Of a stretch of 45,718 bases of DNA, positions 7,262 through 42,544 are shown piece by piece (positions within the stretch are counted from its first letter, which is position 1; the number at the start of each line of letters is the position of its first letter). Below the pieces are notes generated by a model. The model did no database searches. It was given only the letters and a program-made list of their open reading frames with translations, and was not told the origin of the DNA. Where the stretch lies: NCBI GenBank assembly GCA_029568545.1, contig JAKQAH010000005.1:1-45718 (forward strand), in the 5' to 3' direction. The translations under genes were made by a program, and so were the position numbers. Source of the DNA: Candidatus Omnitrophota bacterium. GTDB taxonomy: Bacteria; Omnitrophota; Gorgyraeia; Zapsychrales; Zapsychraceae.

Positions 7262-7291
7262 GGATGATCCTTCTCTATCTTTGGCGGCCGA

Positions 7292-10200
7292 TCAATTTCC
7301 ATCCGCCACAAGCGTCTCGGAAATAATTTCCGTCTCGCTCGGCAAATCGTCCTTCGTTTTATACGCTTTTGCTTCCTCAACAACCCGTCGGTAATCGTTC
7401 GGATAGACCTTGACGAATTGGGGCAATACGGCCTCCCAGCCGTCCAACACGCGCTTCGCCAGATCGCTCTCGGCGTACCGGTAATGTTTTTCTATGAGCT
7501 CCCGGAGCTCCGCAATGTCTTTTTCATCTTCAACGGGAAAAAGGCTGACCGTTCCCATGTTGCACCGGGATTTAAACGTCCCGTCCTTATCCCAGACATA
7601 GGCGATACCGCCGCTCATGCCCGCGGCAAAGTTCCGCCCCGTGCTCCCGAGAACAACCACGCGGCCTCCCGTCATATATTCGCAGCCGTGATCGCCGACG
7701 CCCTCGACAACCGCGCTCGCGCCGCTGTTCCGGACACAGAAGCGCTCTCCCGCGATGCCCCTGAAATACGCCTCGCCGAAGATGGCCCCATAAAGGACTA
7801 CGTTGCCGACGAGAATATTCTCTTCCGGAACAAACGTGGCTTTATAAGACGGCCGGGCGATGATCTTCCCGCCGGAGAGCCCTTTTCCCAGATAATCATT
7901 TGCGTCGCCGGCGAGCGTGAACGTCAATCCGCTGCAGAGAAACGCGCCAAAGCTCTGCCCCGCCGAGCCGATGAACTTGATTCTGATGGTATCTTCCGGC
8001 AGCCCGGCCAATCCGTAGCGGCGGACGATCTCGCTGCTGAGCATCGTCCCGACGGCGCGGTTCGTGTTCTTGATCTTGCAGTCAAATTGCCGCGGTCTCT
8101 TGCTTTCGATCGCTTCCTCGCAGCTTTCAATAAGCCTCATATCTAGCACATCCTCAAGGCCATGATCCTGACGCGTCATGTGCCGTATTGCTGTGCCTTC
8201 AGGAACATCCATCTTATGGAGTATGTTGGTTAAATCGATGCCTTTGGCTTTCCAATGGTCGACCGCTTCTCGTGTTTCAAGCATATCGACGCGTCCGATC
8301 AATTCCTCGAATTTGCGGATCCCCAGTTCGGCCATGATCTCCCGGACTTCTTCGGCGATGAATGTAAAGAAATTGATCACATGTTCCGGACGGCCAGTAA
8401 ATTTCTTCCTTAATTCTTTATCCTGGGTAGCAACTCCGACGGAACACGTATTCAGGTGGCATTTGCGCAGCAAAACGCATCCCATCGTTATCAATGCGGT
8501 GGTCGCAAAGCCGAATTCATCGGCTCCCAACATGCCAGCGATAATAACGTCTCTTCCGGTCTTTAATTGCCCGTCCGTTTGGACCCGGATACGGCCTCGG
8601 AGGTCGTTCATCACCAGGACTTGCTGCGTTTCGGCAATGCCGAGCTCCATCGGCAAGCCCGCATGCTTGATGGACGTTTGCGGAGAGGCGCCCGTTCCGC
8701 CCTCGCCTCCGCTGATAACAACATGATCGGCCTTTCCTTTTGAAACCCCGGCGGCAACGGTGCCAACGCCAACTTCAGAAACAAGTTTGACGCTGACATC
8801 GGCCCGAGAATTCGCGTTTTTCAAATCATAAATAAGTTGTGCGAGGTCTTCAATGGAATAAATGTCGTGATGCGGCGGCGGCGAAATCAGACCGACCCCC
8901 GGCGTTGTATAGCGTGTCGCGGCAATCTCGGCGCTGACCTTATGCCCCGGAAGCTGCCCGCCCTCGCCGGGTTTGGCTCCTTGCGCCATTTTGATCTGGA
9001 TCTGGTCCGCATTGACCAGATAATCGATCGTCACGCCGAACCGCCCTTGCGCCACCTGCTTGATACGGCTGCGGCGCCAATCGCCGTTCGGATCTTTTTT
9101 AAAGCGGGCCGGATCTTCGCCGCCTTCTCCCGTATTGGAAAAACCTCCCAAGCGATTCATCGCAATGGCCATGGTTTCATGCGCTTCCTTGGAAATCGAC
9201 CCGTAGCTCATCGCTCCCGTCGCAAAACGCTTGACGATCTCGGAAACAGGCTCCACCTCCTCGATCGGAACCGGTTTTCTCTTTTTGAATTGAAGAAGCC
9301 CGCGAATGCTAGCTAAATTTGTCTGCTGATCATTGAGGAGCTTGGTATATTGTTTGAATATTTGATAATCGCCAGAGCGCACGGCATGCTGCAGCAAGGC
9401 AACGGTCTGGGGATTCAGCTGATGATGCTTGCCGTCTTTGCGCCAACGATAATTCCCTCCCTCGTCCAGCATCCTTTCATAAACATCCTGCGGCGCGTAG
9501 GCGTCGCGATGTCGACGGTAAGCCTCTTCGGCAATAATATTCAGGTCGATCCCCCCGATGCGCGATGGTGTTCCCATGAAATAGCGGTCAATAAGCCTTT
9601 TTCCCAGGCCCACCGCCTCAAAAATCTGGGCCCCGCAATAGGACTGGATCGTCGATATGCCCATCTTGGAGATAATCTTAAAAAGGCCTTTGCGCGTGGC
9701 TTTGAAGAAATTCTTATGCGCCTGTTCATAGGGCAGGTCCGAAGGGTACGTTCCTTTATTGATCTGGTTTTCCAGCGTCTCGAAGGCAAGGTACGGATTC
9801 ACGGCATTGGCCCCGTACCCGATCAGGACCGCGAAATGATGCATCTCGCGGGCTTCGCCTGTCTCAACGATGAGGCTTACGCGCGTCCTGGTTCCTTGAC
9901 GGATCAAATGATGGTGCAACCCCGAGCAGGCCAACAAAGACGGGATCGGGATATGCTCGCTATCGACGCCCTGATCAGATAAAACAAGGATCGTATATCC
10001 TTGCGCGATGGCGTGGTCCGCCTGCTTAAAGAGATCGTCCAGGGCTTGCTTCATGGCTTTGCCGGGACTTTTTTTGTCTTCTTCATCGATCGAGCTTTTT
10101 GGAAAAACAATGGCTAGCGTCGTAGCTCTAAGATTCCCTCGGTCGACCGCGCGAATCCGCTCCAGCTCGTCGTTGGTGAGCATGGGCCGGGGGATTTTCA

Positions 10201-11890
10201 GGCGGTGGCAATGTTGGGGCGTTTCGTTGAGCAGATTGCTTTCGCCGCCAAGCATGATCGTCTCGTCCATGACCATTTCCTCCCGGATCGAATCGATGGG
10301 CGGGTTGGTCACCTGCGCGAACAGCCGTTTGAAATAATTAAATAAGATCTCGGGCCGTCGGGAAAGAGCGGCTATGGGCGTGTCATCGCCCATGGATCCG
10401 GTCGCCTCGAGGCCCTCGATGGCCATCGGTTTTAAAATCAGTTTGAGGTCCTCGATGGTGTATCCGAAAACCCTCTGGCGCTCCAATAGCGTCTGGGCGT
10501 CAAGACCGTGGATCTTTCTCGGGGCCGGCAGGTCTTTAATATCGACAATGTTTTCCTTCAGCCATTGTCCATACGGCTGCTGCCGGGCGCATTCTCGTTT
10601 GATCCTATCGTCGTCAATCACGGTCCCTTCCAGCGTATCGACCATAAATATCTTCCCCGGCTGCAATCTTCCCTTGACCGCGACTTGCGATTGGTCGATC
10701 GGAAGCACGCCCGTTTCGGAAGCCATGACGACGATATCGTCTTTGGTGATCAGATACCGCGACGGCCTGAGGCCGTTGCGGTCCAGAACGGCGCCGACAA
10801 TCCTGCCGTCGGTGAAAGCGATCGAGGCTGGGCCGTCCCACGGCTCCATCAGGCAGGAATGATATTCATAGAACGCTTTTTTCTCTGCACTCATATCGTC
10901 GCGCCCATTCCACACTTCCGGGATCATCATCATGATCGCGTGCGGCATCGACCGACCGGACAGCACGATCATCTCGAAGGCATTATCGAAGGTCGCGGAA
11001 TCACTGGCGTGAGGTTCCACAATCGGCAGGATCTTCTCCATATCCTCCCCAAAGGCTTCGGAAACAAACTGCATTTCGCGGGCCCGCATCCAATTGACGT
11101 TGCCGCGGAACGTATTGATCTCGCCGTTGTGCGCGATCATGCGGTAAGGATGGGCCAGCGCCCACGTCGGGAAAGTGTTGGTGCTGTACCGGGAATGCAC
11201 CAGCGCGATGGCCGAAACCATCATGGAATCGTCCAGGTCATAGTAGAACTCTTTTAATTGCCCGGGCAAAAGCTGGCCTTTGTAGACCATCGTTTTGCTG
11301 GAAAGGCTGCAGAAATAATAATAATTCCGTTCCCGCAAGGTCGATTCCTGGACGGTGTTGTAAAGCCGCTTGCGGATCACGTAGAGCTTTCGGTCGAAAG
11401 CGGCTTGCGGCGTGTGCGTGCCGCGCTGGATGAACACCTGCTTGAACGTCGGCATGACCGAGCGCGCGACCCGCCCGATCCTCGTTTCATCGTGCGGAAC
11501 GTCGCGCCAGCCAAGGAATTTCTGCCCCTCTTCATGGATAATATGCTCGAACCACTGCTCGATGATGTTGCGGTCCGACGGATTAAGCGGGAGAAAAACG
11601 ATCCCTGTCGCATAGTCCCCCAGCGCCGGCAATTGAATGTTAAGCTTTGCGCATTCTTTCCGCAAAAAAATATCGGGAGTCTGGATCAGGATGCCCGCCC
11701 CGTCGCCGGTCATGGGATCGCACCCGCACGCTCCCCGATGCGAAAGGTTTTCAAGGATCTTCAGCCCGTCGCGCACGATCTCATGCGATTGCGCGCCTTT
11801 CATGTGGGCGATAAACCCGACCCCGCAGCTGTCGTGCTCGAAAGCCGGATCGTACAATCCCTGTTTTTTAGGATAAAATATCCCGCTCAT
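7292..11890 (-). CDS. gltB: glutamate synthase large subunit
   Basis: 1532 aa with the Ntn-amidotransferase start HDSCGVGF, central, FMN and C-terminal GXGXG domains. GGAGAG lies 8 nt upstream of the ATG. Confidence 0.96.
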   Translation of the reverse strand: MSGIFYPKKQGLYDPAFEHDSCGVGFIAHMKGAQSHEIVRDGLKILENLSHRGACGCDPMTGDGAGILIQTPDIFLRKECAKLNIQLPALGDYATGIVFLPLNPSDRNIIEQWFEHIIHEEGQKFLGWRDVPHDETRIGRVARSVMPTFKQVFIQRGTHTPQAAFDRKLYVIRKRLYNTVQESTLRERNYYYFCSLSSKTMVYKGQLLPGQLKEFYYDLDDSMMVSAIALVHSRYSTNTFPTWALAHPYRMIAHNGEINTFRGNVNWMRAREMQFVSEAFGEDMEKILPIVEPHASDSATFDNAFEMIVLSGRSMPHAIMMMIPEVWNGRDDMSAEKKAFYEYHSCLMEPWDGPASIAFTDGRIVGAVLDRNGLRPSRYLITKDDIVVMASETGVLPIDQSQVAVKGRLQPGKIFMVDTLEGTVIDDDRIKRECARQQPYGQWLKENIVDIKDLPAPRKIHGLDAQTLLERQRVFGYTIEDLKLILKPMAIEGLEATGSMGDDTPIAALSRRPEILFNYFKRLFAQVTNPPIDSIREEMVMDETIMLGGESNLLNETPQHCHRLKIPRPMLTNDELERIRAVDRGNLRATTLAIVFPKSSIDEEDKKSPGKAMKQALDDLFKQADHAIAQGYTILVLSDQGVDSEHIPIPSLLACSGLHHHLIRQGTRTRVSLIVETGEAREMHHFAVLIGYGANAVNPYLAFETLENQINKGTYPSDLPYEQAHKNFFKATRKGLFKIISKMGISTIQSYCGAQIFEAVGLGKRLIDRYFMGTPSRIGGIDLNIIAEEAYRRHRDAYAPQDVYERMLDEGGNYRWRKDGKHHQLNPQTVALLQHAVRSGDYQIFKQYTKLLNDQQTNLASIRGLLQFKKRKPVPIEEVEPVSEIVKRFATGAMSYGSISKEAHETMAIAMNRLGGFSNTGEGGEDPARFKKDPNGDWRRSRIKQVAQGRFGVTIDYLVNADQIQIKMAQGAKPGEGGQLPGHKVSAEIAATRYTTPGVGLISPPPHHDIYSIEDLAQLIYDLKNANSRADVSVKLVSEVGVGTVAAGVSKGKADHVVISGGEGGTGASPQTSIKHAGLPMELGIAETQQVLVMNDLRGRIRVQTDGQLKTGRDVIIAGMLGADEFGFATTALITMGCVLLRKCHLNTCSVGVATQDKELRKKFTGRPEHVINFFTFIAEEVREIMAELGIRKFEELIGRVDMLETREAVDHWKAKGIDLTNILHKMDVPEGTAIRHMTRQDHGLEDVLDMRLIESCEEAIESKRPRQFDCKIKNTNRAVGTMLSSEIVRRYGLAGLPEDTIRIKFIGSAGQSFGAFLCSGLTFTLAGDANDYLGKGLSGGKIIARPSYKATFVPEENILVGNVVLYGAIFGEAYFRGIAGERFCVRNSGASAVVEGVGDHGCEYMTGGRVVVLGSTGRNFAAGMSGGIAYVWDKDGTFKSRCNMGTVSLFPVEDEKDIAELRELIEKHYRYAESDLAKRVLDGWEAVLPQFVKVYPNDYRRVVEEAKAYKTKDDLPSETEIISETLVADGN

Positions 11891-11997: not shown

Positions 11998-13395
<1,398 letters not shown>

Positions 13396-13448: not shown

Positions 13449-15071
13449 TTACCGTTCTTTATAACAGTTAGTGATCGGAAGGCGCCAGTCTTTGCCGAAC
13501 GCCCGGGGCGTGATCTTGATCCCGGGGGGCGCCTGCCGTCGTTTATATTCGCTGCGGTCCACCATCCCGATAATATTTTTGATGAGTGCTCGATCCCTCC
13601 TTCTTGCCATTTTCGCCAACGGCCACCGATGCTCAACATATTCTTTGAGCATCTCGTCCAAAAGCCCATACGGCGGCAAACTGTCTTGATCTTTTTGATG
13701 GGCTTTGAGTTCTGCCGTAGGCGCCCTTTTAAGAATGCTGGCCGGAATCATGTTCCCCTCCCGGGCATTCTTAAGCCTTGCCAAATCGTAAATCTTTGTC
13801 TTCGGAACATCCTTGATCACCGCAAATCCGCCGGTCATGTCGCCGTAGAGAGTGCAGTAACCGACGGCGACTTCGCTTTTATTCCCCGTCGTCAGAACCA
13901 GCCATCCGAATTTGTTCGAAAGCGCCATGAGGATATTCCCCCGGATCCTCGCTTGAAGATTTTCTTCGGCTAACCCCGCCTTCGTTCCCCGCCATAGCCC
14001 TTTGAGCTCGTTAAGATACACCTTGAACATCTTTTCGATCGGCGCCTCGATCAGTCTAATCCCCAAATTCCCGGCCAATTTCCGCGCATCCTTTTTCGTC
14101 CCTTGAGATGTATACCTGGACGGCATGGTCACGCCGATCACATTCTCCTTGCCAAGCGCGTCCGTGGCGACGGCCGCGACCAGCGCGGAGTCGATCCCTC
14201 CGCTCAAGCCCAAAACGGCTTTTTGAAAACCGTTTTTTTTCGCATAGTCACGCGTTCCCAAAACCAGGGCCCGGTAAATCCTTTCGTCTTGGCTGAAGGA
14301 GGCCGCACAGCGATTTTCGATGGGCCGTTTTTGTTTCAACCGGCCGATCGGCAGATCGACGATCACCAGATCTTCCTCAAATTGCTTCCCGGACGCGATC
14401 ATTTTCCCGGCGGAATCAAAGACCATGCTGCTTCCGTCGAAAACAAGCTCATCCTGTCCGCCGACAAGATTAACATAGCAGACGAAAGATTTCGTCTGCG
14501 CGGCCCTTTTCCGTAAAAGCTTCTCGCGCTCTTTGAGCTTCCCGACTTCATAGGGAGAAGAAGAAAGATTAATAAGCAATTTCGCCCCCCTGCGCGCTTG
14601 CCGCAACCAAGGGCCCTTTTCGACCCACATGTCCTCGCAGATACTTACGCCAACCTGAACGCCGTCCAGAACGAAATTCTTATTCCGCCGGCCGGAGCAG
14701 AAATACCTTTTTTCATCGAACACGCCATAGTTCGGAAGCGCTTCTTTGCGATAAACGCTTTTTACGCGCCCATCCCCGATAATGGCCGCAGCATTATAAA
14801 GCCTGCCTTTTCCATCCGTATCCGCAAATCCAACCACAGCTACAATGCCTTTGGTCTCGCTTGCCAAAGAACGCAAGACCTTTATGTTATCCCGCACAAA
14901 ATGGTCTTTTAGCAGCAAGTCTTCCGGCGGATAACCGCAAACCGCCAATTCCGGAAAAACGACCATGTCCGCTTCGCGCGCCTTGGCCCGACGGAGGCTC
15001 TCCGCGATCCTGGCCCGATTCCCTTCCAGGTCGCCTACCGTCACATTAATTTGAGCTGCCGCTATTCTCAT
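13449..15071 (-). CDS. nadE: glutamine-dependent NAD+ synthetase (CN-hydrolase + PP-loop synthetase fusion)
   Basis: 540 aa with an N-terminal nitrilase-like domain (VVFPELAVCGY) and a C-terminal GLSGGIDSALVA PP-loop. Confidence 0.93.
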   Translation of the reverse strand: MRIAAAQINVTVGDLEGNRARIAESLRRAKAREADMVVFPELAVCGYPPEDLLLKDHFVRDNIKVLRSLASETKGIVAVVGFADTDGKGRLYNAAAIIGDGRVKSVYRKEALPNYGVFDEKRYFCSGRRNKNFVLDGVQVGVSICEDMWVEKGPWLRQARRGAKLLINLSSSPYEVGKLKEREKLLRKRAAQTKSFVCYVNLVGGQDELVFDGSSMVFDSAGKMIASGKQFEEDLVIVDLPIGRLKQKRPIENRCAASFSQDERIYRALVLGTRDYAKKNGFQKAVLGLSGGIDSALVAAVATDALGKENVIGVTMPSRYTSQGTKKDARKLAGNLGIRLIEAPIEKMFKVYLNELKGLWRGTKAGLAEENLQARIRGNILMALSNKFGWLVLTTGNKSEVAVGYCTLYGDMTGGFAVIKDVPKTKIYDLARLKNAREGNMIPASILKRAPTAELKAHQKDQDSLPPYGLLDEMLKEYVEHRWPLAKMARRRDRALIKNIIGMVDRSEYKRRQAPPGIKITPRAFGKDWRLPITNCYKER

Positions 15072-15790
15072 CTTAGCCCCTTAGCGCTTCGCCGAGAGAT
15101 GATCCCGAGAAAGTTTTCATAAATCTTTTCGGCTGTCTGGCGGAACTTCTTTTGTTTGCGGGAATAATCTTTCAGCATGCGCTCCTTTTGCTTCATGAGA
15201 GAGAAATCGTCCGGAGAAAAATAAGCATCTGCCCATGCGCTAATGACCGGCTCCGTGACCTCGACATGAAACTGCAACCCGTAAGCGGCATCACCGACCT
15301 TAAAAGCCTGGTGCGGGCACGACGAAGAACTGGCCAATAACTGTCCGTCAGCGGGCACCTGAACCATATCCTCGTGCCACTGAAAAACATCAAAGCAGCT
15401 GTCTAAACCGCTAAATAAAGGGTCTCTCTTCCCTTCGTCCGTCAATCGCACCGGAAAGAACCCGACCTCTTTCTCGGGAGACCGCTCCACCTTTGCTCCG
15501 CAGGCTTTGGCTAGCAACTGAGATCCGAGGCAAATACCGAGCATCGGGATCTGCCGGTCCATGATCTTTTTCAAGAACGCATCTTCCGTCGCCAAGAAAG
15601 GATGCTTGCTCTCTTCATAAACGTTCATCGGGCCGCCCAAGCTGATGACAGCATCAAGAGAATCGAGGTCGCCGGGAAGAGCTGCCCGGTCGTACAATTC
15701 GATCGTTCTTGATTCAAATCCGTTTTCTTCAAAGAACTGTCCGAGCGTGCCAGGCCCTTCGATCGAGATGTGTTTGATAAAGAGAACCAT
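15068..15790 (-). CDS. stand-alone class-I glutamine amidotransferase (GuaA-N-like)
   Basis: 240 aa with nucleophile elbow GICLGSQLL and the His-Glu pair in LQFHVE. Its stop overlaps the nadE start (ATGA, 4-nt overlap). Confidence 0.8.
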   Translation of the reverse strand: MVLFIKHISIEGPGTLGQFFEENGFESRTIELYDRAALPGDLDSLDAVISLGGPMNVYEESKHPFLATEDAFLKKIMDRQIPMLGICLGSQLLAKACGAKVERSPEKEVGFFPVRLTDEGKRDPLFSGLDSCFDVFQWHEDMVQVPADGQLLASSSSCPHQAFKVGDAAYGLQFHVEVTEPVISAWADAYFSPDDFSLMKQKERMLKDYSRKQKKFRQTAEKIYENFLGIISRRSAKGLR

Positions 15791-15810
15791 CTTTTCCTGG
15801 GCCTGTTAAG

Positions 15811-15871
15811 AAAAAGCGGATAGCGTTGGACAAAACTGCGGGGCAATCCGATCAACACTATCCGCTTTTTT
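15811..15871 (-). terminator. intrinsic terminator after glnN (A-run/U-run flanked, so potentially bidirectional)
   Basis: GCGGAUAGUGUUG[24 nt]CAACGCUAUCCGC, a 13-bp stem with one G.U, followed by UUUUUCUU. It ends 20 nt before the amidotransferase ATG. Confidence 0.8.
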
Positions 15872-15888
15872 GTATCGTCCGACCCTTC

Positions 15889-18039
15889 CTACATCATGAA
15901 TAGCATTTCCGCGTACGAGGGCAGCGGCCAATCTTCCGCCGGAACCAAGCCTTCCATCGCGTCGATGATCTTGCGCAGCCCGGCCGCATTGTCTTTCATG
16001 TCTTTGGCAGAGCCGCCGGCAATAGATTTCTCAAGCTCTCCGATCGCTGACAGCGCCTCTTCCGTTTTCAGCGAAAGTTCTTTGAGAAGCTTCCGGCTTG
16101 CTGTTAACTTTGTCTTATTAATGCCTTCGACAGATTTGATCGTTTCGGCCAGCTCGATCTGATACTTCATCGCCGCCGGAAGGATCGTCGTCTTGGCCAT
16201 GTCGGCCGCCAGACCGGCTTCGTATTTGATAATCGTTTCATAAGCCTCGAGATAGACTTCATAGCGAGACATCATTTCTTTCTTCGTCAAAACGCCGTGC
16301 TTTTCACACAAAGCAAGAACGGCCGGCTCAAGGGTCGCCTTAAGAGCTTCCGGCGTGGTTTTTAAGTTCGGAAGTCCTCGTTTTTTTGCTTCTTTCACCC
16401 ATTCTTCGGTGTAGTTATCCCCGTTAAAGATGACCCTTTTGTGCTTCTTGATGATATCCTGAAGAATATTCTGGACGGCCTTGTTCATGTTCTTATCGGC
16501 CTTTTTCGCATCTTCCAGCTTTCCGCAAATTTCGTCCAGCGCATCGGCAACGATCGTATTGAGAACAACGTTCGCTCCCGACAGATTCATGGCTGACCCT
16601 ACCGCGCGGAACTCAAATTTCGATCCCGTAAAGGCGAAGGGCGAGGTCCGGTTGCGGTCAGAGGCATGGCGCGGCAGATTAGGAAGGGAATCCACGCCGA
16701 CTTCCAGAGTCCCGCCGTTTTTCGAGCTTTTGATGCCCGAGCCTTTTTCGATCTGCTCGATAATATCGTTGAGCTGGTCGCCCAGATAGACGGAAACGAT
16801 CGCGGGCGGCGCTTCATGAGAGCCCAGACGATGGTCGTTGCCGGCCGAGGCCACCGAAGCGCGCAAAAATCCGGCATGCGTATCAACCGCCTTGATGACC
16901 GCGCACAGCATGATCAAAAAGCGCTCGTTCTCATGAGGATTGGCGCCCGGAGAGAGCCAGTTCTTCCCGTCGGGACCGGTCACAGACCAATTGCAATGCT
17001 TGCCTGAACCGTTGACGCCGGCAAACGGTTTTTCATGCAGCAGACAAGCCAATCCATGGCGTTTTGCGACCTTCTGCATAACTTCCATGGTCAGCATGTT
17101 GTGATCAACGGCAATATTCTGATTCTCGAAAATAGGAGCCACTTCATACTGCCCCGGAGCGACTTCATTATGACGCGTTTTAAGAGGCGCGCCCAACCGC
17201 CACATCTCGCGGTCAAGATCTTCCATGAACGCGATGACGCGGTCCTTGATAGCCCCGAAATAGTGATCGGCCATCTGCTGGTGCTTGGCCGGCGCCTTCC
17301 CGAACAATGTCCTACCCGTCTGAACAAGATCGATCCTTTGATCATAAAATTTCTTATCGATCAGGAAATATTCCTGCTCTCCGCCGAGCGTCGCAAAAGG
17401 GCTCTGCGATATCTTGATGTTCAGGATCTTTGCCAGCCGCGTGATCTGCTTGGAAATCGCCTTCATTGAGCGCAGCAGAGGTGTTTTTTTGTCTAGGGCC
17501 TCTCCGTGCCACCCAACGAAATACGTCGGAATGCAAAGCGTGGCGCCCTGAGGACCCTCTTTAATGAAAGCCGGGCTCGTCGGATCCCATCCGGTATACC
17601 CGCGCGCTTCAAAGGTAGCGCGCAAGCCGCCTGATGGAAAACTGGAGGCATCCGGTTCGCCCTGGATCAACGCGCTGCCGGAGAATTCCAGAATAACGCC
17701 TCCCTCGTTGTCGAGTTCGATAAAGGAATCATGCTTTTCAGCGGTTAATCCGGTCAAAGGTTGAAACCAGTGCGTGTAGTGAGTGGCTCCTTTCGAGACC
17801 GCCCAATTTTTCATGGCTTCGGCAACTTCATCGGCAATGCTCGGATCAAGCGCCCCATTGTTCTTGATGGCCTCACTTAACGATTTATACGCTTTTTCAG
17901 ACAGATAATTGCGCATGATCTTAAGGCCAAATACGTTTTCGCCATAATAGTCGGGAACCGTTTTGCGTCCGTTCTCCGTTGTCATAATGTGTTCTCCTTT
18001 AATGCTTGGAATTCCGATTTCGCTTAATCTTGTTCTCAT
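15889..18039 (-). CDS. glnN: type III glutamine synthetase
   Basis: About 716 aa with the GlnN-type N-terminus (DYYGENVF, HYTHWFQPLTG) and a GS catalytic core. The ATG at 18039 has GGGAGGA 5 nt upstream. An in-frame ATG at 17985 has AAAGGAGAA 6 nt upstream and is an alternative. The track start at 18087 is TTG inside a hairpin. Confidence 0.9.
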   Translation of the reverse strand: MRTRLSEIGIPSIKGEHIMTTENGRKTVPDYYGENVFGLKIMRNYLSEKAYKSLSEAIKNNGALDPSIADEVAEAMKNWAVSKGATHYTHWFQPLTGLTAEKHDSFIELDNEGGVILEFSGSALIQGEPDASSFPSGGLRATFEARGYTGWDPTSPAFIKEGPQGATLCIPTYFVGWHGEALDKKTPLLRSMKAISKQITRLAKILNIKISQSPFATLGGEQEYFLIDKKFYDQRIDLVQTGRTLFGKAPAKHQQMADHYFGAIKDRVIAFMEDLDREMWRLGAPLKTRHNEVAPGQYEVAPIFENQNIAVDHNMLTMEVMQKVAKRHGLACLLHEKPFAGVNGSGKHCNWSVTGPDGKNWLSPGANPHENERFLIMLCAVIKAVDTHAGFLRASVASAGNDHRLGSHEAPPAIVSVYLGDQLNDIIEQIEKGSGIKSSKNGGTLEVGVDSLPNLPRHASDRNRTSPFAFTGSKFEFRAVGSAMNLSGANVVLNTIVADALDEICGKLEDAKKADKNMNKAVQNILQDIIKKHKRVIFNGDNYTEEWVKEAKKRGLPNLKTTPEALKATLEPAVLALCEKHGVLTKKEMMSRYEVYLEAYETIIKYEAGLAADMAKTTILPAAMKYQIELAETIKSVEGINKTKLTASRKLLKELSLKTEEALSAIGELEKSIAGGSAKDMKDNAAGLRKIIDAMEGLVPAEDWPLPSYAEMLFMM

Positions 18040-18045
18040 GTTATC

Positions 18046-18069
18046 CTCCCTTTTTTCTTGAAAAAGGAG
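18046..18069 (-). promoter_or_regulatory. hairpin masking the SD of the 18039 glnN start
   Basis: CUCCUUUUU[CAAGA]AAAAAG(G)GAG, 9 bp with one bulged G. The 3' arm contains the GGGAGG ribosome-binding site. Confidence 0.5.
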
Positions 18070-18099
18070 CGTTTCAGAGAATTTCAAGGAATATGCAAT

Positions 18100-18141
18100 A
18101 AAAAAGCCTCTTTGCGCAGTTTTACCCTTGCTAAAGAGGAC
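18100..18141 (-). terminator. intrinsic terminator in the glnN leader
   Basis: GUCCUCUUU(A)GC[14 nt]GCAAAGAGGC followed by UUUUUU. It lies between the predicted promoter and the glnN RBS. Confidence 0.7.
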
Positions 18142-18151
18142 GCCAGTGCCC
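18138..18151 (-). promoter_or_regulatory. ANTAR-type P2 hexaloop hairpin overlapping the glnN leader terminator
   Basis: GGGC[ACUGGC]GUCC with loop A1 and G4. The 3' arm GUCC is the first 4 nt of the terminator 5' arm. Confidence 0.55.
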
Positions 18152-18194
18152 TTGCACCCAACACCAAAAAAATCTTGTTCTCACGTCGGAGATC

Positions 18195-18221
18195 CCTTTT
18201 CAGACATCATTGCCTAAAAGG
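18195..18221 (-). promoter_or_regulatory. hexaloop hairpin (P1-like) at the 5' end of the glnN leader
   Basis: CCUUUUAGGC[AAUGAU]GUCUGAAAAGG. The loop has A1/G4 and resembles the amtB-leader loops GAUGAU and AAAGAU. Confidence 0.45.
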
Positions 18222-18232
18222 TGAGATAGATG

Positions 18233-18261
18233 AATATACAGCCGACGTATATTTTTGTCAA
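18233..18261 (-). promoter_or_regulatory. sigma70-type promoter for glnN (TTGACA-17-TATATT)
   Basis: -35 at 18261..18256 and -10 at 18238..18233, read on the minus strand. Confidence 0.6.
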
Positions 18262-18378
18262 GATTTTTCTAGAGCTAAAATCCCTTTGTTTTCTGAGGGA
18301 TACGGCCTTCCTTGACGCCCTGAACTTCCTTCCCCAAAGCCTTGATTTCTCAAGAGCTTCCAACAATATTGACCTTAT

Positions 18379-18720
18379 TTATCCTATAGCTTCTTTCCCT
18401 TCTTCCCCCGTTCGGATGCGGATGCACCGCGGCAGATCAAGGACAAAAATCTTTCCATCTCCGATCTGGCCCGTCCTGGCGCCTTTGATGATCGCATTAA
18501 TGGTCGGCTCGACAAAATCCTCATTAACAGCGATTTCAAACCGAACTTTTTTCAAGAGATTGACCTCGTGGATAACCCCTCGGTACGTTTCCTTGAACCC
18601 CCTTTGTTGCCCGCACCCAAGAACATTGGTCACGGTCATCTTATGAACTTCCGCATCAAACAGCGCCTTTTTGACATCCGGCATCTTGTGCGGCTGGATC
18701 ATGGCGACAATTAATTTCAT
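18379..18720 (-). CDS. glnB: nitrogen regulatory protein P-II
   Basis: 113 aa from the ATG at 18720 ([12 protein letters not shown]...) with AAAGGAGAA upstream. It has a T-loop with YRG and lies directly downstream of amtB. Confidence 0.93.
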
Positions 18721-18814
18721 ATCAATTCTCCTTTTTTTCTCATTCATCATTTAGATAAAATTGGGCTTCTGAAATTTTGAGAAAAATACGCGCATGGCGC
18801 CGTTTCTCCCTGTC

Positions 18815-20155
18815 TCACTGATTCAAGAAAATTTGAAATCCGGCGTAAGATTCCATCCCGTGTTCCCCAATATCCAACCCCTGCGTCTCTTCTTCTTTGG
18901 ATACGCGAATGCCGGTCGTCGCTTTTAAAACGCCGAATATGGCAAAGGCCGCTGCCGCCGCCGATAACCCGTAAGCGACTACGCCAATGAGCTGCACCGC
19001 AAAAGAATGCGCTGGATCTGTGCTGAAAATCCCGACTGCCAAGGTTCCCCAAACGCCGCAGACCAAGTGAACGGAAAGGGCGCCAACGGGATCATCGATC
19101 TTCAATTTTGTATCAAAAAAGATAACCGCCAAGACAACCAAAATGCCGGCAATCAAGCCAATGAGAATGGACGATAATATAGAAACCGTGTCCGCTCCGG
19201 CCGTAATGCCGACGAGACCAGCCAACGTGCCATTTAAAACCATGGACAGATCGGGCTTCTTCTGGATCCACTGAGACGTAAACATAGCCCCGGTCATCCC
19301 CGCACACGCGGCTAAGGATGTTGTAACCAGCACATAGGATACGGCCCCCGGATCGGCAGATAAAACAGACCCGCCGTTGAAGCCGAACCACCCCAGCCAC
19401 AGCATAAACACTCCGATCGTCGCAAGCGGCATGCTGTGACCCGGAATAGCTTTAATGGCTCCGTTGGCATATTTGCCTAGCCGTGGCCCAAGCAAGACTG
19501 CGCCAGCTAATGCCCCCCAGCCTCCAACAGAGTGAACCAGCGTCGAGCCGGCAAAATCATGAAATCCCATTTCGCTCAGCCATCCGCCGCCCCAATTCCA
19601 GCTGCCAAGAAACGGATAGACCAATCCGACAAAGAACACCGAGAAGATCAGAAAACTGTTCAATTTTACGCGCTCGGCAACGGCACCTGAAACGATTGTG
19701 GCTGCCGTTGCGGCAAACATCCCCTGAAATAAGAAATCCGTCCAGTAGGTATAATGCCCGTCCGCATAGGCGATGAGTCCGGCGGCTCCCTCCGGCGACG
19801 AGATGCCCCAGCCCGAAAACCCGAACCATTTCCCGAAAATCCAGGCATCCCCCGGATACATAAGATTGAATCCGCCGACCGCATAGGTCAGCAGCCCGAT
19901 ACCCACGATCGTGACATTCTTAAAGAGAATGTTGACCGTATTTTTAGATTGTGTGAGGCCTGACTCTACGGTGGCAAACCCCAAGCTCATGATAAAAACG
20001 AGAGCCGTCGAGATCATCATCCAGAGGTTATTAACCATGAACACCGCCTCGTCCGCAGTTGCCGCTTCGGCCAGGCCGTAAAACCCGCCGAAAAAAGCAA
20101 CCAGCCCGACGATTATCCCCATTTTTCCTACTTTCTTTAAAAAGTCGTCTAACAT
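18815..20155 (-). CDS. amtB: ammonium transporter
   Basis: The Amt/MEP core includes DFAGSTLVHSVGGW and is multi-TM. The ATG at 20155 (MLDDFLKK...) is preceded by GGGAGGG. The 71 extra codons in the track ORF cover the leader terminators. Confidence 0.93.
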   Translation of the reverse strand: MLDDFLKKVGKMGIIVGLVAFFGGFYGLAEAATADEAVFMVNNLWMMISTALVFIMSLGFATVESGLTQSKNTVNILFKNVTIVGIGLLTYAVGGFNLMYPGDAWIFGKWFGFSGWGISSPEGAAGLIAYADGHYTYWTDFLFQGMFAATAATIVSGAVAERVKLNSFLIFSVFFVGLVYPFLGSWNWGGGWLSEMGFHDFAGSTLVHSVGGWGALAGAVLLGPRLGKYANGAIKAIPGHSMPLATIGVFMLWLGWFGFNGGSVLSADPGAVSYVLVTTSLAACAGMTGAMFTSQWIQKKPDLSMVLNGTLAGLVGITAGADTVSILSSILIGLIAGILVVLAVIFFDTKLKIDDPVGALSVHLVCGVWGTLAVGIFSTDPAHSFAVQLIGVVAYGLSAAAAAFAIFGVLKATTGIRVSKEEETQGLDIGEHGMESYAGFQIFLNQ

Positions 20156-20185
20156 TTTTCCCTCCCGTTGAATGTGTTTTTGACC

Positions 20186-20229
20186 AAAAAAAATCCTCTC
20201 CGAAAACCCTTCAGGGCTTCCAAAGAGGA
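20186..20229 (-). terminator. amtB leader terminator 2
   Basis: UCCUCUUUGGAAGCCC[UGAA]GGGUUUUCGGAGAGGA, 16 bp including 4 G.U, followed by U8. It ends 30 nt before the amtB ATG. Confidence 0.8.
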
Positions 20230-20258
20230 CGTCACTGTCCAACAGCATCTTTGCTTTT
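20227..20258 (-). promoter_or_regulatory. ANTAR-type dual hexaloop element, unit 2
   Basis: AAAAGC[AAAGAU]GCUGUU is immediately followed by GGAC[AGUGAC]GUCC. Both loops have A1/G4, and the P2 3' arm overlaps the terminator 2 5' arm. Confidence 0.6.
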
Positions 20259-20315
20259 ATGTAAAAGCCGGCGATCTTTGAATAAATCCGGAACGTCCGA
20301 CTGTGATCTGGGCAC

Positions 20316-20355
20316 AAAAAAACCCGACTTCCACGGAACTCTGTGGTAGGTCGGG
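20316..20355 (-). terminator. amtB leader terminator 1
   Basis: CCCGAC-CUA-CCAC[AGAGUUCC]GUGG-AA-GUCGGG followed by U7. Confidence 0.7.
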
Positions 20356-20394
20356 CCGCGTTGCCCAAAAATTTTCTAAACCATCATCGGTTTA
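20353..20394 (-). promoter_or_regulatory. ANTAR-type dual hexaloop element, unit 1
   Basis: UAAACC[GAUGAU]GGUUUA, a 10-nt linker, then GGGC[AACGCG]GCCC. The P2 loop has A1/G4 and its 3' arm shares CCC with the terminator 1 5' arm. The P1 loop has G at position 1, a deviation. Confidence 0.55.
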
Positions 20395-20418
20395 ACTGCT
20401 TGCTTCTAAGACTCTGCA

Positions 20419-20447
20419 AGTATACAAGCCGTTTGTGCGCCTGTCAA
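20419..20447 (-). promoter_or_regulatory. sigma70-type promoter for amtB-glnB (TTGACA-17-TATACT)
   Basis: -35 at 20447..20442 and -10 at 20424..20419 on the minus strand, 12 nt after the regulator stop. Confidence 0.65.
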
Positions 20448-20458
20448 GAAATTATTTC

Positions 20459-21697
20459 TTATTTCTTTTTTTGAAACTCATCCATCAAAAGAATTGATTC
20501 CGCGATCTCTTTCATGGACCGGCAGGAATCCATACTTTTTTTATGGATCATTTTATGCGCTTCCTCCTCGGAGAGGCCGCTCAAGCGCATGAGCACGCCC
20601 TTGGCCCGCTCAACCAATTTTCTTGTCTCCAAAGCCTCTTTGGCGTTCAAGGCCTCCTGCATGAGATGCGTATTTTCAACCGCGATGGCCGCTTGATTCG
20701 CGACCATTTGCAGCACATTGATCTCTTCGCGAGTAAACGTGTGCGGCTCTTTGGTGTAAACGTTGACAACGCCGATGGAATGGTCTTTGACGACCATCGG
20801 CACGGAAAGCATCGAGGTCAGCCCCTCTCTGATCGCCAAATCGCGGAACCCGTATTTTTGCTCCGTGCGCACATCATCCACGGTGACGGGTTTTTTGGCC
20901 TTCATGGCCTCTCCGGCAACGCTGCCGTGCGCCTTGACGTTAGGTTTGTTCTTGTATTCCAGGCTCAAGCTCTGCGAAGCCTTGATGACAAGCTCGTCGT
21001 GCTTTTCATCCAGCAGCATAATGGAGCATATCTTGGAATTGAGCATCTCGGCCGTCACGACCACAATCAGGTTGAGGATCTCATCAATATAGTTCTCGGA
21101 AGTAATCGATTGGCTGACCTTCACCAGGCTGTCGAATTGCAAAGCCTTTTGCTTGATATCCTGGAACAGCCGCGCATGCTCGATCACGCCGCTGATCTGC
21201 TTGGCGATCAGCGTGATCATGCCGATCGTTGCGGGAGTATATTCGTGCGCTTTTTTGTGCTGGATATTCACGACGCCGATGGCTTCGTTATTATAGATGA
21301 TCGGGACCGAAAGAAAAGCCTCGTAGCGGTCTTCGGGCAGCACATCAAAACCCTTGAAACGTTTGTCCTGATAGGCATTTTCCTTAATCGCGACGGGCTT
21401 GTTTTCCCGGGCAACCCATCCGGTGATCCCTTCGCCGGCCCTAAGATGGATCTTCCCCAGCTCTCGGGAGTGCGGCGTTTTGGAAGCCATCAGGACAAGG
21501 TTTTGCTTTTTCTCATCAAAGAGGTAAATAAAGACGGAGTCCGCCTTGGTGGCTTCCGTCATGACGCCGACCACTTCGGACAGGATCTTAGGAAGATCGG
21601 GCTGTGCATTGGTGATCTCCACAATCTTGCGTAAAACCCCAAGCTCTTGGCTTTGGCTGATATTCAGCTTTTTATTTTTTTCTTTTTTTGCGGTCAT
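20459..21697 (-). CDS. GAF-GAF-ANTAR RNA-binding antiterminator-type regulator
   Basis: 412 aa with two GAF-like modules (roughly residues 20-180 and 190-350). The C-terminal ANTAR helix bundle reads ALETRKLVERAKGVLMRLSGLSEEEAHKMIHKKSMDSCRSMKEIAESIL. There is no receiver domain. Confidence 0.85.
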   Translation of the reverse strand: MTAKKEKNKKLNISQSQELGVLRKIVEITNAQPDLPKILSEVVGVMTEATKADSVFIYLFDEKKQNLVLMASKTPHSRELGKIHLRAGEGITGWVARENKPVAIKENAYQDKRFKGFDVLPEDRYEAFLSVPIIYNNEAIGVVNIQHKKAHEYTPATIGMITLIAKQISGVIEHARLFQDIKQKALQFDSLVKVSQSITSENYIDEILNLIVVVTAEMLNSKICSIMLLDEKHDELVIKASQSLSLEYKNKPNVKAHGSVAGEAMKAKKPVTVDDVRTEQKYGFRDLAIREGLTSMLSVPMVVKDHSIGVVNVYTKEPHTFTREEINVLQMVANQAAIAVENTHLMQEALNAKEALETRKLVERAKGVLMRLSGLSEEEAHKMIHKKSMDSCRSMKEIAESILLMDEFQKKK

Positions 21698-28894: not shown

Positions 28895-30037
28895 TCAGAT
28901 CTCAAATTTACGCGTAAAAATATCGCGGCTGACCTCCGGCGCCGGCCGGGCCAACAAATACCCCTGAACAGCATCCACCCCCAGCTCATTGACCGCCTCC
29001 AGCTCTTTCTCCTCTTCGATCCCCTCCGCAACCGTCAGAACCTTGCTTTTCTTGCAAAACGATATGATCGCCTGCATAATATTGTATTTCAGATCGTCCT
29101 TGTGAAGCTCGCGCACTAATTGCCGGTCAATTTTCACGATGTCCGGACGTATCTCGACGACCGTATCCAGACTCGCGAACCCGCTGCCCACATCATCGAC
29201 GGCAATCTTGATACCGATATTGCGGAGCATATCCAGCTCTTTTAAGAAAACATTATATTTTTGGATGGCCGTGCGTTCCGTAATCTCCAGAACAATGCTT
29301 CCGGGGTCTATCTCAAGCCCGGCGATAAACCCTTCGTTGAGCCTCCCGCTTTCAATGAAATAGGGCGTGCAGTTCAAAAAAAGCTTTTCTTGATTGATCG
29401 TAGCTTTCCATCGGGCAACAGCCGTTTTCCAGCAAACCCTTTCGACTTCGGAATACATATCCAGAATAAGCGCCGTTTTAAACAAAAACTCGGCATTGTC
29501 GATCAATCCGCTGGTCGGCGGCCGACTGAGCGCCTCAAGCCCGATCGGCAAGCCGGTTTTCATCGAATAAATCGGCTGAAAATACGGCGTGATCATTTCT
29601 TCGCTGAGGATTTTTTTTAGTTCCGTGGCGAGGGCCCCCTGTTCCTTCTGAACCTGCTGGAACACCTGGTTTCTTCTCAAGACAGCTTCGATGCGCGCGA
29701 CGAGCTCCTCGCTGTCGATGGGCTTGGAGACGCAGTCATCCGCCCCGCAAGAAAACCCTTTGATCCTTTCGGAGGACACGTTTTGAGGCGTGAAAATAAT
29801 GATGGAGATGTGGTTTAACCGTTTTTCTCCCCGTATTTCTTGGCATACCTGCATTCCTGTGATGTCGGGGAGCTCTTGGTCGAGCAAAATCAGGTCGGGA
29901 TACTGATTGACTTTTTCCAGCGCTTCTTTGCCGCTATGAGCCACATCGATTCGATAGCCGCGGGATTGGAGCTGTTTTGTTGTCGATTGGACAAAGGCTC
30001 CATCCCTGTCAACCATCAATATGTGTTTTTGGGCCAT
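28895..30037 (-). CDS. response-regulator receiver + EAL domain c-di-GMP phosphodiesterase
   Basis: REC N-terminus (ILMVDRD...DLILLD). EAL-domain motifs are YFQPIY, LEALSR, DDVGSGFASL, VKIDRQLV and QGYLLARP. Confidence 0.88.
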   Translation of the reverse strand: MAQKHILMVDRDGAFVQSTTKQLQSRGYRIDVAHSGKEALEKVNQYPDLILLDQELPDITGMQVCQEIRGEKRLNHISIIIFTPQNVSSERIKGFSCGADDCVSKPIDSEELVARIEAVLRRNQVFQQVQKEQGALATELKKILSEEMITPYFQPIYSMKTGLPIGLEALSRPPTSGLIDNAEFLFKTALILDMYSEVERVCWKTAVARWKATINQEKLFLNCTPYFIESGRLNEGFIAGLEIDPGSIVLEITERTAIQKYNVFLKELDMLRNIGIKIAVDDVGSGFASLDTVVEIRPDIVKIDRQLVRELHKDDLKYNIMQAIISFCKKSKVLTVAEGIEEEKELEAVNELGVDAVQGYLLARPAPEVSRDIFTRKFEI

Positions 30038-30257: not shown

Positions 30258-30329
30258 CTGCCCCGTCTGGACTCGAACCAGAAATAACTGATCCAGAGTC
30301 AGTCGTGTTACCAATTACACCACAGGGCA
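30258..30329 (-). tRNA. tRNA-Gln (anticodon CUG)
   Basis: Hand-folded cloverleaf. Acceptor UGCCCUG/CGGGGCA with U1-A72, D stem GUGU/ACAC, anticodon stem ACUGA/UCAGU with loop CUCUGGA, and T arm UCUGG-UUCGAGU-CCAGA. CCA is not encoded. Confidence 0.9.
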
Positions 30330-32139: not shown

Positions 32140-32523
32140 TTACACGGCATTTCTTACGAGGCGGTCAACAATTCTCTTCAGGCGCGCTTGATTATCCGGA
32201 GAAATATTCATAAATTCGATTCCGATATCAAAGAAGAGCGGTTTTTCGGCGGCTTCGCGCTGGCGCTGGACGTTCCAAACAACCTTTCCCCTGCAACATA
32301 TATGATCGCCCAAATCCAAAAGGTCCAGCTCCAGATCAACCTCGCTAAACATTTTGACGCTCTGTTTTAGAACAACGCAAACTCCGCCGATCCCGATGTT
32401 GTCCGTATGGGTCAGAATAACATTATCTTTCTCGTCGCCATCATCGCTTCTGTTGATGATCACCAGACACGGGTAATTGACCCGCGGGAATTGTCTTCGG
32501 TCCAACCCTTCCCATTGCCCCAT
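32140..32523 (-). CDS. single-domain PilZ c-di-GMP receptor
   Basis: RRQFPR (RxxxR) and DNIGIGG (D/NxSxxG-like) motifs in a 127-aa protein. GAGGAGG lies upstream. Confidence 0.75.
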   Translation of the reverse strand: MGQWEGLDRRQFPRVNYPCLVIINRSDDGDEKDNVILTHTDNIGIGGVCVVLKQSVKMFSEVDLELDLLDLGDHICCRGKVVWNVQRQREAAEKPLFFDIGIEFMNISPDNQARLKRIVDRLVRNAV

Positions 32524-42281: not shown

Positions 42282-42358
42282 TGGTGGGGCCAACAAGGCT
42301 CGAACTTGTGACCTCTTCCATGTCAAGGAAGCACTCTAACCAACTGAGCTATGGCCCC
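42282..42358 (-). tRNA. tRNA-Val (anticodon GAC), CCA encoded
   Basis: GGGGCCA/UGGCCCC acceptor, anticodon arm CUUCC-UUGACAU-GGAAG, T loop GUUCGAGCC. 77 nt. Confidence 0.92.
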
Positions 42359-42378
42359 ACATATTAAATTTCATCCCA

Positions 42379-42461
42379 TGGGCAAGGTGGGAATCGAACC
42401 CACACAGCCTTTCGGCCACAGGATTTTAAGTCCTGCGTGTATGCAATTCCACCACTTGCCC
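42379..42461 (-). tRNA. tRNA-Leu (anticodon UAA), long variable arm
   Basis: GGGCAAG/CUUGCCC acceptor, anticodon arm CAGGA-CUUAAAA-UCCUG, variable arm GGCCGAAAGGCU. 83 nt, CCA not encoded. Confidence 0.9.
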
Positions 42462-42472
42462 AAATTTATTAA

Positions 42473-42544
<72 letters not shown>

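Follow-up and report, generated by a model that had tools for sequence, protein, structure and literature searches.

Antitermination by ANTAR proteins is an established mode of control of nitrogen genes, as in the case of NasR, NasT, AmiR and EutV. In the EutV/EutW system of Enterococcus faecalis, an ANTAR dimer binds two hexaloop hairpins, each with A at the first and G at the fourth loop position (A1 and G4), and the second hairpin overlaps the terminator (PMC3369931, PMC8934654). In Geobacter sulfurreducens, the REC-ANTAR protein GnfR antiterminates nifH, and termination signals lie in the glnK and amtB leaders (PMC2995071). Here we describe a tandem-GAF-ANTAR protein encoded at positions 20459-21697 of a contig from a Candidatus Omnitrophota bacterium (JAKQAH010000005.1, assembly GCA_029568545.1). 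The window is the whole stretch analyzed, 45,718 nucleotides, and all window features given below lie on its minus strand. Judged from sequence and comparative evidence, this protein is probably (at about 0.75-0.8) the antiterminator of the leaders of amtB-glnB and glnN, which encode an ammonium transporter, a P-II signal protein and a type III glutamine synthetase.

ANTAR sites before P-II, ammonium-transporter and glutamine-synthetase genes have been predicted in Clostridia, Desulfotomaculum and others (Ramesh et al., 2012); the tables of that study hold no Nitrospira, Elusimicrobium or Thermodesulfovibrio entry and no mention of GAF. GAF-ANTAR is itself a catalogued Pfam architecture (PMC3369931, 10.1101/660928, PMC12591593). 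It was called uncharacterized in 2012, a 2020 list of studied one-component ANTAR proteins names NasR and PAL only, and in a 2025 review GAF appears solely as an architecture. Our literature search found no experimental study of any GAF-ANTAR protein and none on ANTAR in the phyla treated here, in agreement with an earlier reading of this DNA (the original prediction), which held that GAF-to-ANTAR nitrogen control had not been dissected experimentally.

The coding sequence starts with ATG and specifies 412 amino acids. Pfam places two GAF stretches in the protein, with whole-protein E-values of 7e-42 (GAF_2), 6e-37 (GAF) and 3e-29 (GAF_3). The first, GAF1 (residues ~21-182; 21152-21637), is of the PtsP/EI-Ntr type by NCBIfam PRK11061, by PDB entry 3ci6 and by Foldseek. 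The second, GAF2 (residues 204-341; 20675-21088), is the best stretch for Pfam GAF_2 and coincides with an NCBIfam match to the N-terminal part of NifA. The C-terminal ANTAR domain (residues 352-403; 20489-20644) matches PF03861 with 72.4 bits against a cutoff of 27.3, covering profile positions 3-54 of 54. Neither Response_reg nor NIT has a Pfam match in the 412 residues. A sequence search of the PDB likewise recovered Rv1626, NasR and the response regulator 6wsh through the ANTAR portion only: the receiver parts of Rv1626 and 6wsh are without a match, and the match to NasR (4akk) is limited to residues 341-405, leaving the NIT domain unmatched.

The AlphaFold2 model, built from a 37-sequence alignment, has a mean pLDDT of 82. 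It contains two alpha/beta GAF folds with a long connecting helix (residues 155-199), and a second long helix (323-373) leading from GAF2 into the C-terminal ANTAR helical bundle (helices 323-373, 377-391 and 395-411, local pLDDT about 85-91). The top Foldseek matches of the whole model are tandem-GAF modules, namely CyaB2 (1ykd), PDE2A, PDE5A and phytochrome GAF-PHY, of which the first three are dimeric. The protein therefore classes with ANTAR proteins (it is above the curated threshold and has the long helix and bundle) and with tandem-GAF proteins, and not with receiver-ANTAR, NIT-ANTAR, PtsP or NifA proteins. The two GAF modules and terminal ANTAR domain of the original prediction, with no receiver or NIT input, are thus borne out by both the domain searches and the structure model. 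We read the protein as a one-component regulator that is probably dimeric.

The regulator gene stops 11 nt short of a sigma-70-type promoter (TTGACA-17-TATACT; 20419-20447) with 11 of 12 consensus matches. The original prediction had the promoter right and the spacing, given as 12 nt, off by one. From this promoter a leader of ~260 nt runs to amtB (18815-20155; Pfam Ammonium_transp, 1.8e-113), whose probable ATG at 20155 follows a GGGAGGG ribosome-binding site, and glnB/glnK (18379-18720; Pfam P-II, 3.6e-27) comes next. A second promoter of the same type (TTGACA-17-TATATT; 18233-18261), also with 11 of 12 consensus matches, lies 2.2 kb beyond the first and is followed by a leader of ~190 nt and glnN (15889-18039; Pfam GSIII_N, 1e-76, with Gln-synt_C and Gln-synt_C-ter).

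Three copies of one RNA module occupy these leaders. Its core is a hexaloop hairpin, P2, of the form GGRC-ANNGNN-GYCC, the 3' arm of which doubles as the first part of the terminator stem (5' arm) of an intrinsic terminator; a further hexaloop hairpin, P1, lies upstream. In module 1 of the amtB leader, P1 (UAAACC-GAUGAU-GGUUUA; 20377-20394), found by reading the sequence, forms in the minimum free energy (MFE) fold, and the closest relative (locus L026) has the loop AUCGAU in its place. The P2 of this module (GGGC-AACGCG-GCCC; 20353-20366) was found by the scan and has a fold energy of -8.2 kcal/mol alone, computed with two flanking bases on each side. It shares CCC of its 3' arm with the 5' arm of terminator 1 (CCCGAC...GUCGGG followed by U7; 20316-20355), which at -15.2 kcal/mol dominates the MFE fold. 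Module 2 of the same leader has a P1 with a stem of just 3 bp (AGC-AAAGAU-GCU; 20244-20255) and a P2 from the scan (GGAC-AGUGAC-GUCC; 20227-20240; -5.2 kcal/mol alone), the GUCC of which begins the 5' arm of terminator 2, a 17-bp stem with U8 detected by the terminator scan (20186-20230; -25.3 kcal/mol, z = -4.8). In the glnN leader, the P1 of module 3 (CCUUUUAGGC-AAUGAU-GUCUGAAAAGG; 18195-18221) forms in the MFE fold, and the GUCC of its P2 (GGGC-ACUGGC-GUCC; 18138-18151; scan; -5.7 kcal/mol alone) begins the 5' arm of the glnN leader terminator (GUCCUCUUU...AAAGAGGC with U6; 18100-18141; -12.4 kcal/mol). The distance from P1 to P2 is 10 nt in module 1, 3 nt in module 2 and 45 nt in module 3. 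All three modules that the original prediction had placed next to the regulator gene exist on the regulator strand, the one in the glnN leader being about 2.3 kb away rather than adjoining.

G4 is present in all six loops of the three modules and A1 in five of the six, which is the ANTAR-substrate signature as defined for EutV (PMC3369931). A scan of both strands for an ANNGNN hexaloop hairpin with a 3' arm overlapping a terminator gave four matches in the window, three of them within the 459 nt of the two leaders, against 0.83 +/- 0.83 in dinucleotide shuffles of the whole window. In free RNA the terminators (-12 to -25 kcal/mol) beat P2 (-5 to -8 kcal/mol); termination is therefore the predicted default, and P2 would persist only with the help of a protein. 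A known riboswitch or curated Rfam ANTAR-RNA family was rejected as the identity of the leaders, which had no such match in a scan of the window at gathering thresholds or in a permissive scan of 17900-20500; the Rfam output consisted only of tRNAs and one chance match.

The module is conserved in relatives. Across all fetched loci, the scan gave 49 matches on the regulator strand and 2 on the opposite strand, and nearly all lie right after the regulator gene or right before amtB, glnN, nadE, glutamate synthase, P-II-glnA or nirB genes. These counts are lower bounds, since the strict scan passes over plausible modules in which the loop has 7 nt, the stem contains mismatches or the U-tract is weak; such modules were found by eye or with a looser pattern (loci L003, L004, L010, L020, L023 and L037). 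For example, the leader of nadE-amtB-glnB-glnD-glnA in Nitrospirota locus L037, read by eye, holds GGGAGAC-AACGAC-GUUUCCC, GGAC-GACGAC-GUCC and a terminator. P2 is nearly invariant, whereas the terminator stems show compensatory changes at 5 of 7 pairs among 12 modules from the glnN and amtB leaders of the window and relatives. A fixed P2 beside a covarying terminator is expected if the protein reads P2 and the terminator merely folds. For a covariance model the P1-P2 spacing and the stems vary too much, and P2 by itself is not long enough to yield useful E-values. Upstream P1 hexaloops (ANNGNN, stem of at least 4 bp) accompany 44% of modules, compared with 9% at random positions. Of 43 modules, 37 have a near-consensus sigma-70 promoter in the 220 nt before them, whereas random positions have one in 8% of cases; such promoters fit regulation after initiation.

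These leaders bear on the possibility that the protein binds its targets to control translation or RNA stability, as has been suggested in mycobacteria for ANTAR targets overlapping start sites. ANTAR-RNA binding can indeed repress translation in actinobacteria (10.1101/660928). At this locus each P2 is instead coupled to a U-tract terminator 30-260 nt before the start codon, not to the ribosome-binding site, and the terminator stems are kept by compensatory changes, which together make this explanation very improbable.

Certain leaders are more elaborate. In the tandem leaders of L002 (7800-7892), L009 (8791-8882), L011 (8793-8884) and L028 (~7260-7340), the loop of terminator 1 is ANTAR-like (GUUGAA, AAUGAA or GGUGAA) and sits 10-13 nt before the next P2, and in these cases terminator 1 may double as the P1 of module 2. 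Three modules stand in tandem in the glnN leader of L032 (~7267-7480), two with GGGCAAUGAUGUCC and one with GGGCAACGACGUCC, and every one of them has a separate terminator; the glnN leader of the window has one module. In L021 of the Omnitrophota (5917-5955) and in L035 (7865-7905) and L039 (7854-7891) of the Elusimicrobiota, a P2-terminator module stands directly before the regulator gene itself, which suggests autoregulation there; no module precedes the regulator gene in the window.

Gene order in relatives was surveyed in 32 species-representative loci, nearly all from Omnitrophota, of which 25 were informative downstream (at least 2 kb), with nitrogen genes counted within 6 kb. Nitrogen-assimilation genes follow the regulator in 20 of these 25 Omnitrophota loci, mostly as same-strand amtB-PII and/or glnN. 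Other downstream sets are gltA-like glutamate synthase with gdhA (L012, L017, L023), nirBD directly behind the module (L019) and ptsP (L021). In some loci unrelated genes separate the regulator from the nitrogen genes. They encode a TPS/ShlB secretion pair, HAMP-HD, AAA/DUF4143 and products that lack a Pfam match, and they vary from one locus to the next, which argues for selection on the regulator-nitrogen linkage. The order regulator, nadE, (GerE-type gene), amtB, P-II is found on contigs from Latescibacterota, Nitrospirota and Elusimicrobiota, with (glnD) glnA after P-II in the Latescibacterota and Nitrospirota. On another contig from Elusimicrobiota, a glutamate-synthase gene precedes the regulator, and amtB follows it at a distance of 8 kb. 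The architecture thus co-occurs with hexaloop-terminator leaders on amtB, PII, glnN, glnA, gdhA, glt, nirB and nadE operons in Omnitrophota, Elusimicrobiota, Latescibacterota and Nitrospirota, extending the association with amtB and glnN leaders from which the original prediction started.

In the window, the nqrA-F genes (27669-21904) end 206 nt upstream of the regulator on the same strand, and no sigma-70 promoter is recognizable in the gap between nqrF and the regulator gene. On this ground the regulator could belong functionally to the Na+-NQR operon, sensing redox state or sodium, with its nitrogen adjacency secondary. The relatives leave this explanation hardly credible: nqrF is upstream in just 7 of the 28 Omnitrophota loci with enough upstream sequence and in no locus of another phylum, as against the 20 of 25 with nitrogen genes downstream. 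Linkage to nqr was rejected on these counts. The regulator gene keeps synteny with nitrogen genes rather than nqr, which answers the concern raised in the original prediction.

Several loci carry further genes of interest next to the regulator. An open reading frame (ORF) of 260-290 amino acids with a signal peptide recurs between the leader and amtB or glt in L002 (8088-8888), L014 (4530-5318), L017 (7644-8426), L021 (7421-8251) and L025 (8884-9765); the first four were scanned and have no Pfam match. The corresponding ORF of L036 matches Gcw_chp weakly, on the basis of which the recurring ORF may encode an outer-membrane channel tied to ammonium uptake. In L004 (~7430 onward) and L010 (~7455 onward), the modules after the regulator are followed by an uncharacterized signal-peptide protein, and a similar-looking 440-residue protein without a Pfam match has the same position in L005 (7391-8713), in the leader of which no module was found. 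This protein may be an unrecognized member of the regulon.

The regulator belongs to a widespread family. More than 7000 database proteins match it, and the best 120 of them share 68-82% identity over their full length of about 410 amino acids, with GAF and ANTAR domains; the named ones are from Candidatus Omnitrophota metagenome-assembled genomes. Among cluster representatives of 1.84 billion proteins, about a dozen full-length relatives of ~400 residues have 40-52% identity, the rest of that search being mostly giant multi-GAF proteins, so that no family size can be derived from it. These relatives seeded the profile search that reached other phyla, where proteins of ~400-440 residues with the same architecture are present in Nitrospirota (including Ca. 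Manganitrophus noduliformans), Elusimicrobiota and Latescibacterota, and at one locus (L030) in Nitrospinota. Identity to the window protein across phyla is about 50%, with invariant motifs in both GAF domains and in ANTAR. The database labels for these proteins are 'GAF domain-containing', 'GAF and ANTAR domain-containing' and 'signal transduction protein with GAF and PtsI domain'.

One characteristic expected of an RNA-binding ANTAR domain is the arginine corresponding to R340 of NasR, which is essential for RNA binding (PMC7496416). The aligned residue of the window protein is R359, and it is invariant in 37 family members. The RNA-binding aromatic residue W362 of NasR aligns with H381 (codon 20555-20557). 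Histidine is also found here in the four nearest relatives of alignment A2 (P0002, P0003, P0015 and P0041), and elsewhere in the aligned family the position is Tyr, Phe, His or Ser, mostly Tyr or Phe.

On the comparative evidence, we consider it well supported that the protein acts as an antiterminator of these leaders. The computational checks suggested in the original prediction all came out in its favor, and none of its refuting outcomes was seen in them. Several observations weigh against it. H381 stands where NasR has its RNA-binding aromatic residue. P1 is irregular in all three window modules: the module 1 loop starts with G, the module 2 stem has 3 bp and the P1-P2 distance of module 3 is 45 nt. 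In addition, two Nitrospirota loci (L034 and L038) and about 5 Omnitrophota loci have no adjoining nitrogen genes. The scan demanded P2 pairing, and P2 pair statistics are consequently not independent evidence and were not used; the evidence used instead comprises strand bias, position, shuffles and terminator covariation. Finally, another ANTAR protein in the genome beyond the 46-kb window could serve the leaders, for instance a receiver-ANTAR protein like GnfR, in which case the window protein would have other targets and its adjacency to amtB would be incidental. A two-component protein does this job in Geobacter (PMC2995071), several ANTAR proteins per genome are common (10.1101/660928), and the visible genome is limited to 46 kb. 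We nevertheless judge this improbable. The order of regulator gene, module and nitrogen operon is kept in at least four phyla despite rearrangements and unrelated insertions, and in L021, L035 and L039 a module also stands ahead of the regulator gene. No receiver-ANTAR gene is present among the window ORFs examined, nor was another ANTAR match found in the called genes of the six non-Omnitrophota loci, to which that screen was confined.

The two GAF domains provide clues to the input. Sequence and fold both clearly place GAF1 with the GAF domain of PtsP (Enzyme I-Ntr): positions 4-164 of the NCBIfam PRK11061 (PtsP) profile match residues 21-182 with 125 bits, the PtsP GAF structure 3ci6 matches in sequence with E=2.6e-24 at 33% identity, and Foldseek gives a target-normalized TM-score of 0.86-0.93 to 3ci6 and 3trc at 30-33% identity. 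The protein is not a PtsP, as the N, mobile and PEP-binding domains of the PEP-utilizer group have no Pfam match and the PRK11061 score is far under the 583-bit cutoff. A genuine ptsP gene with GAF and PEP-utilizer domains is present in L021 (8636-10906), 1.4 kb downstream of the regulator, and therefore both PtsP-type GAF proteins coexist in that genome. The NifA match covers residues 187-402 (GAF2 and linker) and corresponds to the N-terminal 212 of 534 model positions, with about 91-92 bits against a cutoff of 529; neither the AAA+ sigma-54 interaction domain nor a helix-turn-helix (HTH) of the NifA type is matched in the protein. A weak NreA match (38 bits, NCBIfam) spans residues 82-158.

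The PtsP GAF binds glutamine, which is inhibitory, and 2-oxoglutarate, which is stimulatory, in E. coli, Sinorhizobium and Caulobacter (PMC13104625, PMC4848567). This precedent makes the idea of 2-oxoglutarate as ligand reasonable, with PtsP a better analogue than NifA and glutamine an equally good candidate. The original prediction had proposed 2-oxoglutarate by analogy with the NifA GAF, and the kinship to PtsP refines rather than contradicts that guess. Direct sensing of glutamine or 2-oxoglutarate through GAF1 is, by this analogy, our tentative proposal for the signal.

The same protein and targets could be combined with a different input, such as PII docking on a GAF domain, or nitrate, ATP/ADP or a redox cofactor. 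GlnB docks on NifA in some proteobacteria, and NreA senses nitrate. Consistent with a PII input, the regulated operon includes a PII gene both here and in most relatives, and GAF2 and its linker match the N-terminal region of NifA; the NreA match and the nirBD genes behind the L019 module could point to another metabolite. However, GAF1 is far nearer to the PtsP GAF (125 bits) than to NreA (38) or NifA (92), and in L022, L032, L017 and L023, where the regulated genes are glnN, gltA-like or gdhA, the vicinity lacks a PII gene. Cyclic nucleotides are also disfavored: in the NKFDE motif of cyclic-nucleotide-binding GAF domains of the PDE/CyaB type, which we take to be N-K...F-x3-D-E, the F-x3-D-E part was not seen in either GAF on inspection of the sequence and alignment A2. 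Overall we regard a different input as unlikely, with odds that still deserve attention.

From the domain architecture, leader anatomy, synteny and cis-elements we infer RNA binding, antitermination, the direction of regulation and the nature of the ligand, which could be combined in the following mechanism. Two strong, constitutive-looking sigma-70 promoters would drive transcription of the amtB-PII and glnN leaders. The emerging transcript would by default form the intrinsic terminators, two in series before amtB and one before glnN, and transcription would stop. Once nitrogen limitation is registered by the tandem GAF sensor, a regulator dimer would bind the P1 and P2 hexaloops through its ANTAR domains. 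The stabilized P2 would then sequester the first 3-4 bases of the terminator 5' arm, those that pair beside the U-tract, and RNA polymerase would continue into amtB-glnB and glnN. As the most likely signal we propose the glutamine/2-oxoglutarate balance at the PtsP-type GAF1 (2-oxoglutarate on, glutamine off), with the PII protein as the main alternative or an extra input. We consider this mechanism as a whole likely.

The regulator heads a nitrogen-assimilation supercluster, in that amtB, P-II, glnN, a class-I amidotransferase gene (15068-15790), a gene for glutamine-dependent NAD synthetase (nadE; 13449-15071), the glutamate dehydrogenase gene gdhA (11998-13395), gltB (7292-11890), gltD (5816-7261) and carA (884-1981) all lie downstream. 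A very strong hairpin terminator follows glnN (~15790-15890, in a 121-nt stretch with an MFE of -40.6 kcal/mol), and only about 25 nt separate it from the start of the amidotransferase gene. Neither a module nor a promoter was found before the amidotransferase-nadE-gdhA-gltBD genes by the module scan and search. As the original prediction had it in part, no NtrBC-, GlnR- or NtcA-like gene is present among the window ORFs scanned or recognized; a 46-kb window cannot represent the genome, and this absence therefore carries no weight. Beyond the nitrogen genes, a receiver-EAL (c-di-GMP phosphodiesterase-type) protein (28895-30037) and a PilZ-domain protein (32140-32523) are encoded a few kb upstream of nqr, and four tRNA genes lie at 30258-30329 and 42285-42544, three of them tightly clustered.

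The link of ANTAR proteins to nitrogen metabolism and the GAF-ANTAR architecture are already known. The novelty lies in a one-component system, conserved across phyla, that combines a plausible metabolite sensor with simple RNA targets and promoters resembling those of E. coli. To our knowledge, nitrogen sensing is essentially uncharted in Omnitrophota, Elusimicrobiota and Latescibacterota and largely so in Nitrospirota, and most members of these phyla are uncultured. A broader proposal, which we consider rather doubtful, is that Omnitrophota, Nitrospirota, Elusimicrobiota, Latescibacterota and Nitrospinota all use the tandem-GAF-ANTAR family as their master nitrogen regulator, its PtsP-type GAF reading glutamine/2-oxoglutarate and its ANTAR domain antiterminating amtB, PII, glnN/glnA, nadE, gdhA, glt and nirBD. 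If true, a single polypeptide, with no phosphorylation or DNA binding, would fill the role that NtrBC, GlnR, TnrA or NtcA has elsewhere, and would be the first worked example of GAF-to-ANTAR signaling. Should GAF1 bind glutamine or 2-oxoglutarate, the PtsP-type nitrogen-sensing GAF would be a portable module, and the large uncharacterized GAF-ANTAR class would have its first mechanism. The system is testable entirely in vitro or in a heterologous host, since the protein is single and soluble, its putative RNA targets are short and the promoters resemble those of E. coli, and such a compact metabolite-to-RNA switch could find use in synthetic biology. A search for P2 plus terminator would also let metagenomes yield predicted nitrogen regulons.

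Each of the described systems shares part of this design. EutV/EutW is the source of the dual-hexaloop mechanism invoked for the window leaders, but it has a receiver input and ethanolamine-utilization targets, and its P1-P2 spacing is more regular. The GAF of PtsP/Enzyme I-Ntr (PDB 3CI6, 3TRC) is the nearest relative of GAF1 in sequence and fold; it controls a PEP-dependent phosphotransferase, whereas GAF1 precedes a second GAF and an RNA-binding domain. The GAF domain of NifA reports nitrogen status by 2-oxoglutarate binding or PII interaction, and so joins nitrogen status to a gene-expression output as proposed here. It is located at the NifA N-terminus (PMC2995071), and the output of NifA, an AAA+ ATPase and a DNA-binding HTH acting at initiation, is absent from the window protein. 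The actinobacterial GAF-ANTAR, PAS-ANTAR and PAL (PAS-LOV-ANTAR) proteins are likewise one-component ANTAR proteins; unlike the window protein as we read it, PAL senses light, and the studied actinobacterial ANTAR targets act on translation.

NasR of Klebsiella oxytoca (NIT-ANTAR; PDB 4AKK; PMC7496416) is also a one-component protein, in which the sensor is joined by helices to ANTAR and a nitrogen-assimilation operon is controlled through a leader terminator, and its R340 is conserved as R359. It differs in its NIT sensor for nitrate/nitrite, in having the nas operon as sole target, and in W362, which corresponds to His381 here. GnfR has an ANTAR output, and its proposed site, CAGGCAANGGCGCC, holds a GGC-AANGGC-GCC hairpin very like the P2 described here (PMC2995071). 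The input of GnfR is phosphorylation by GnfK under a sigma-54/GnfLM cascade (PMC2995071), whereas in the window system two GAF domains replace the receiver and the promoters are sigma-70 consensus-like.

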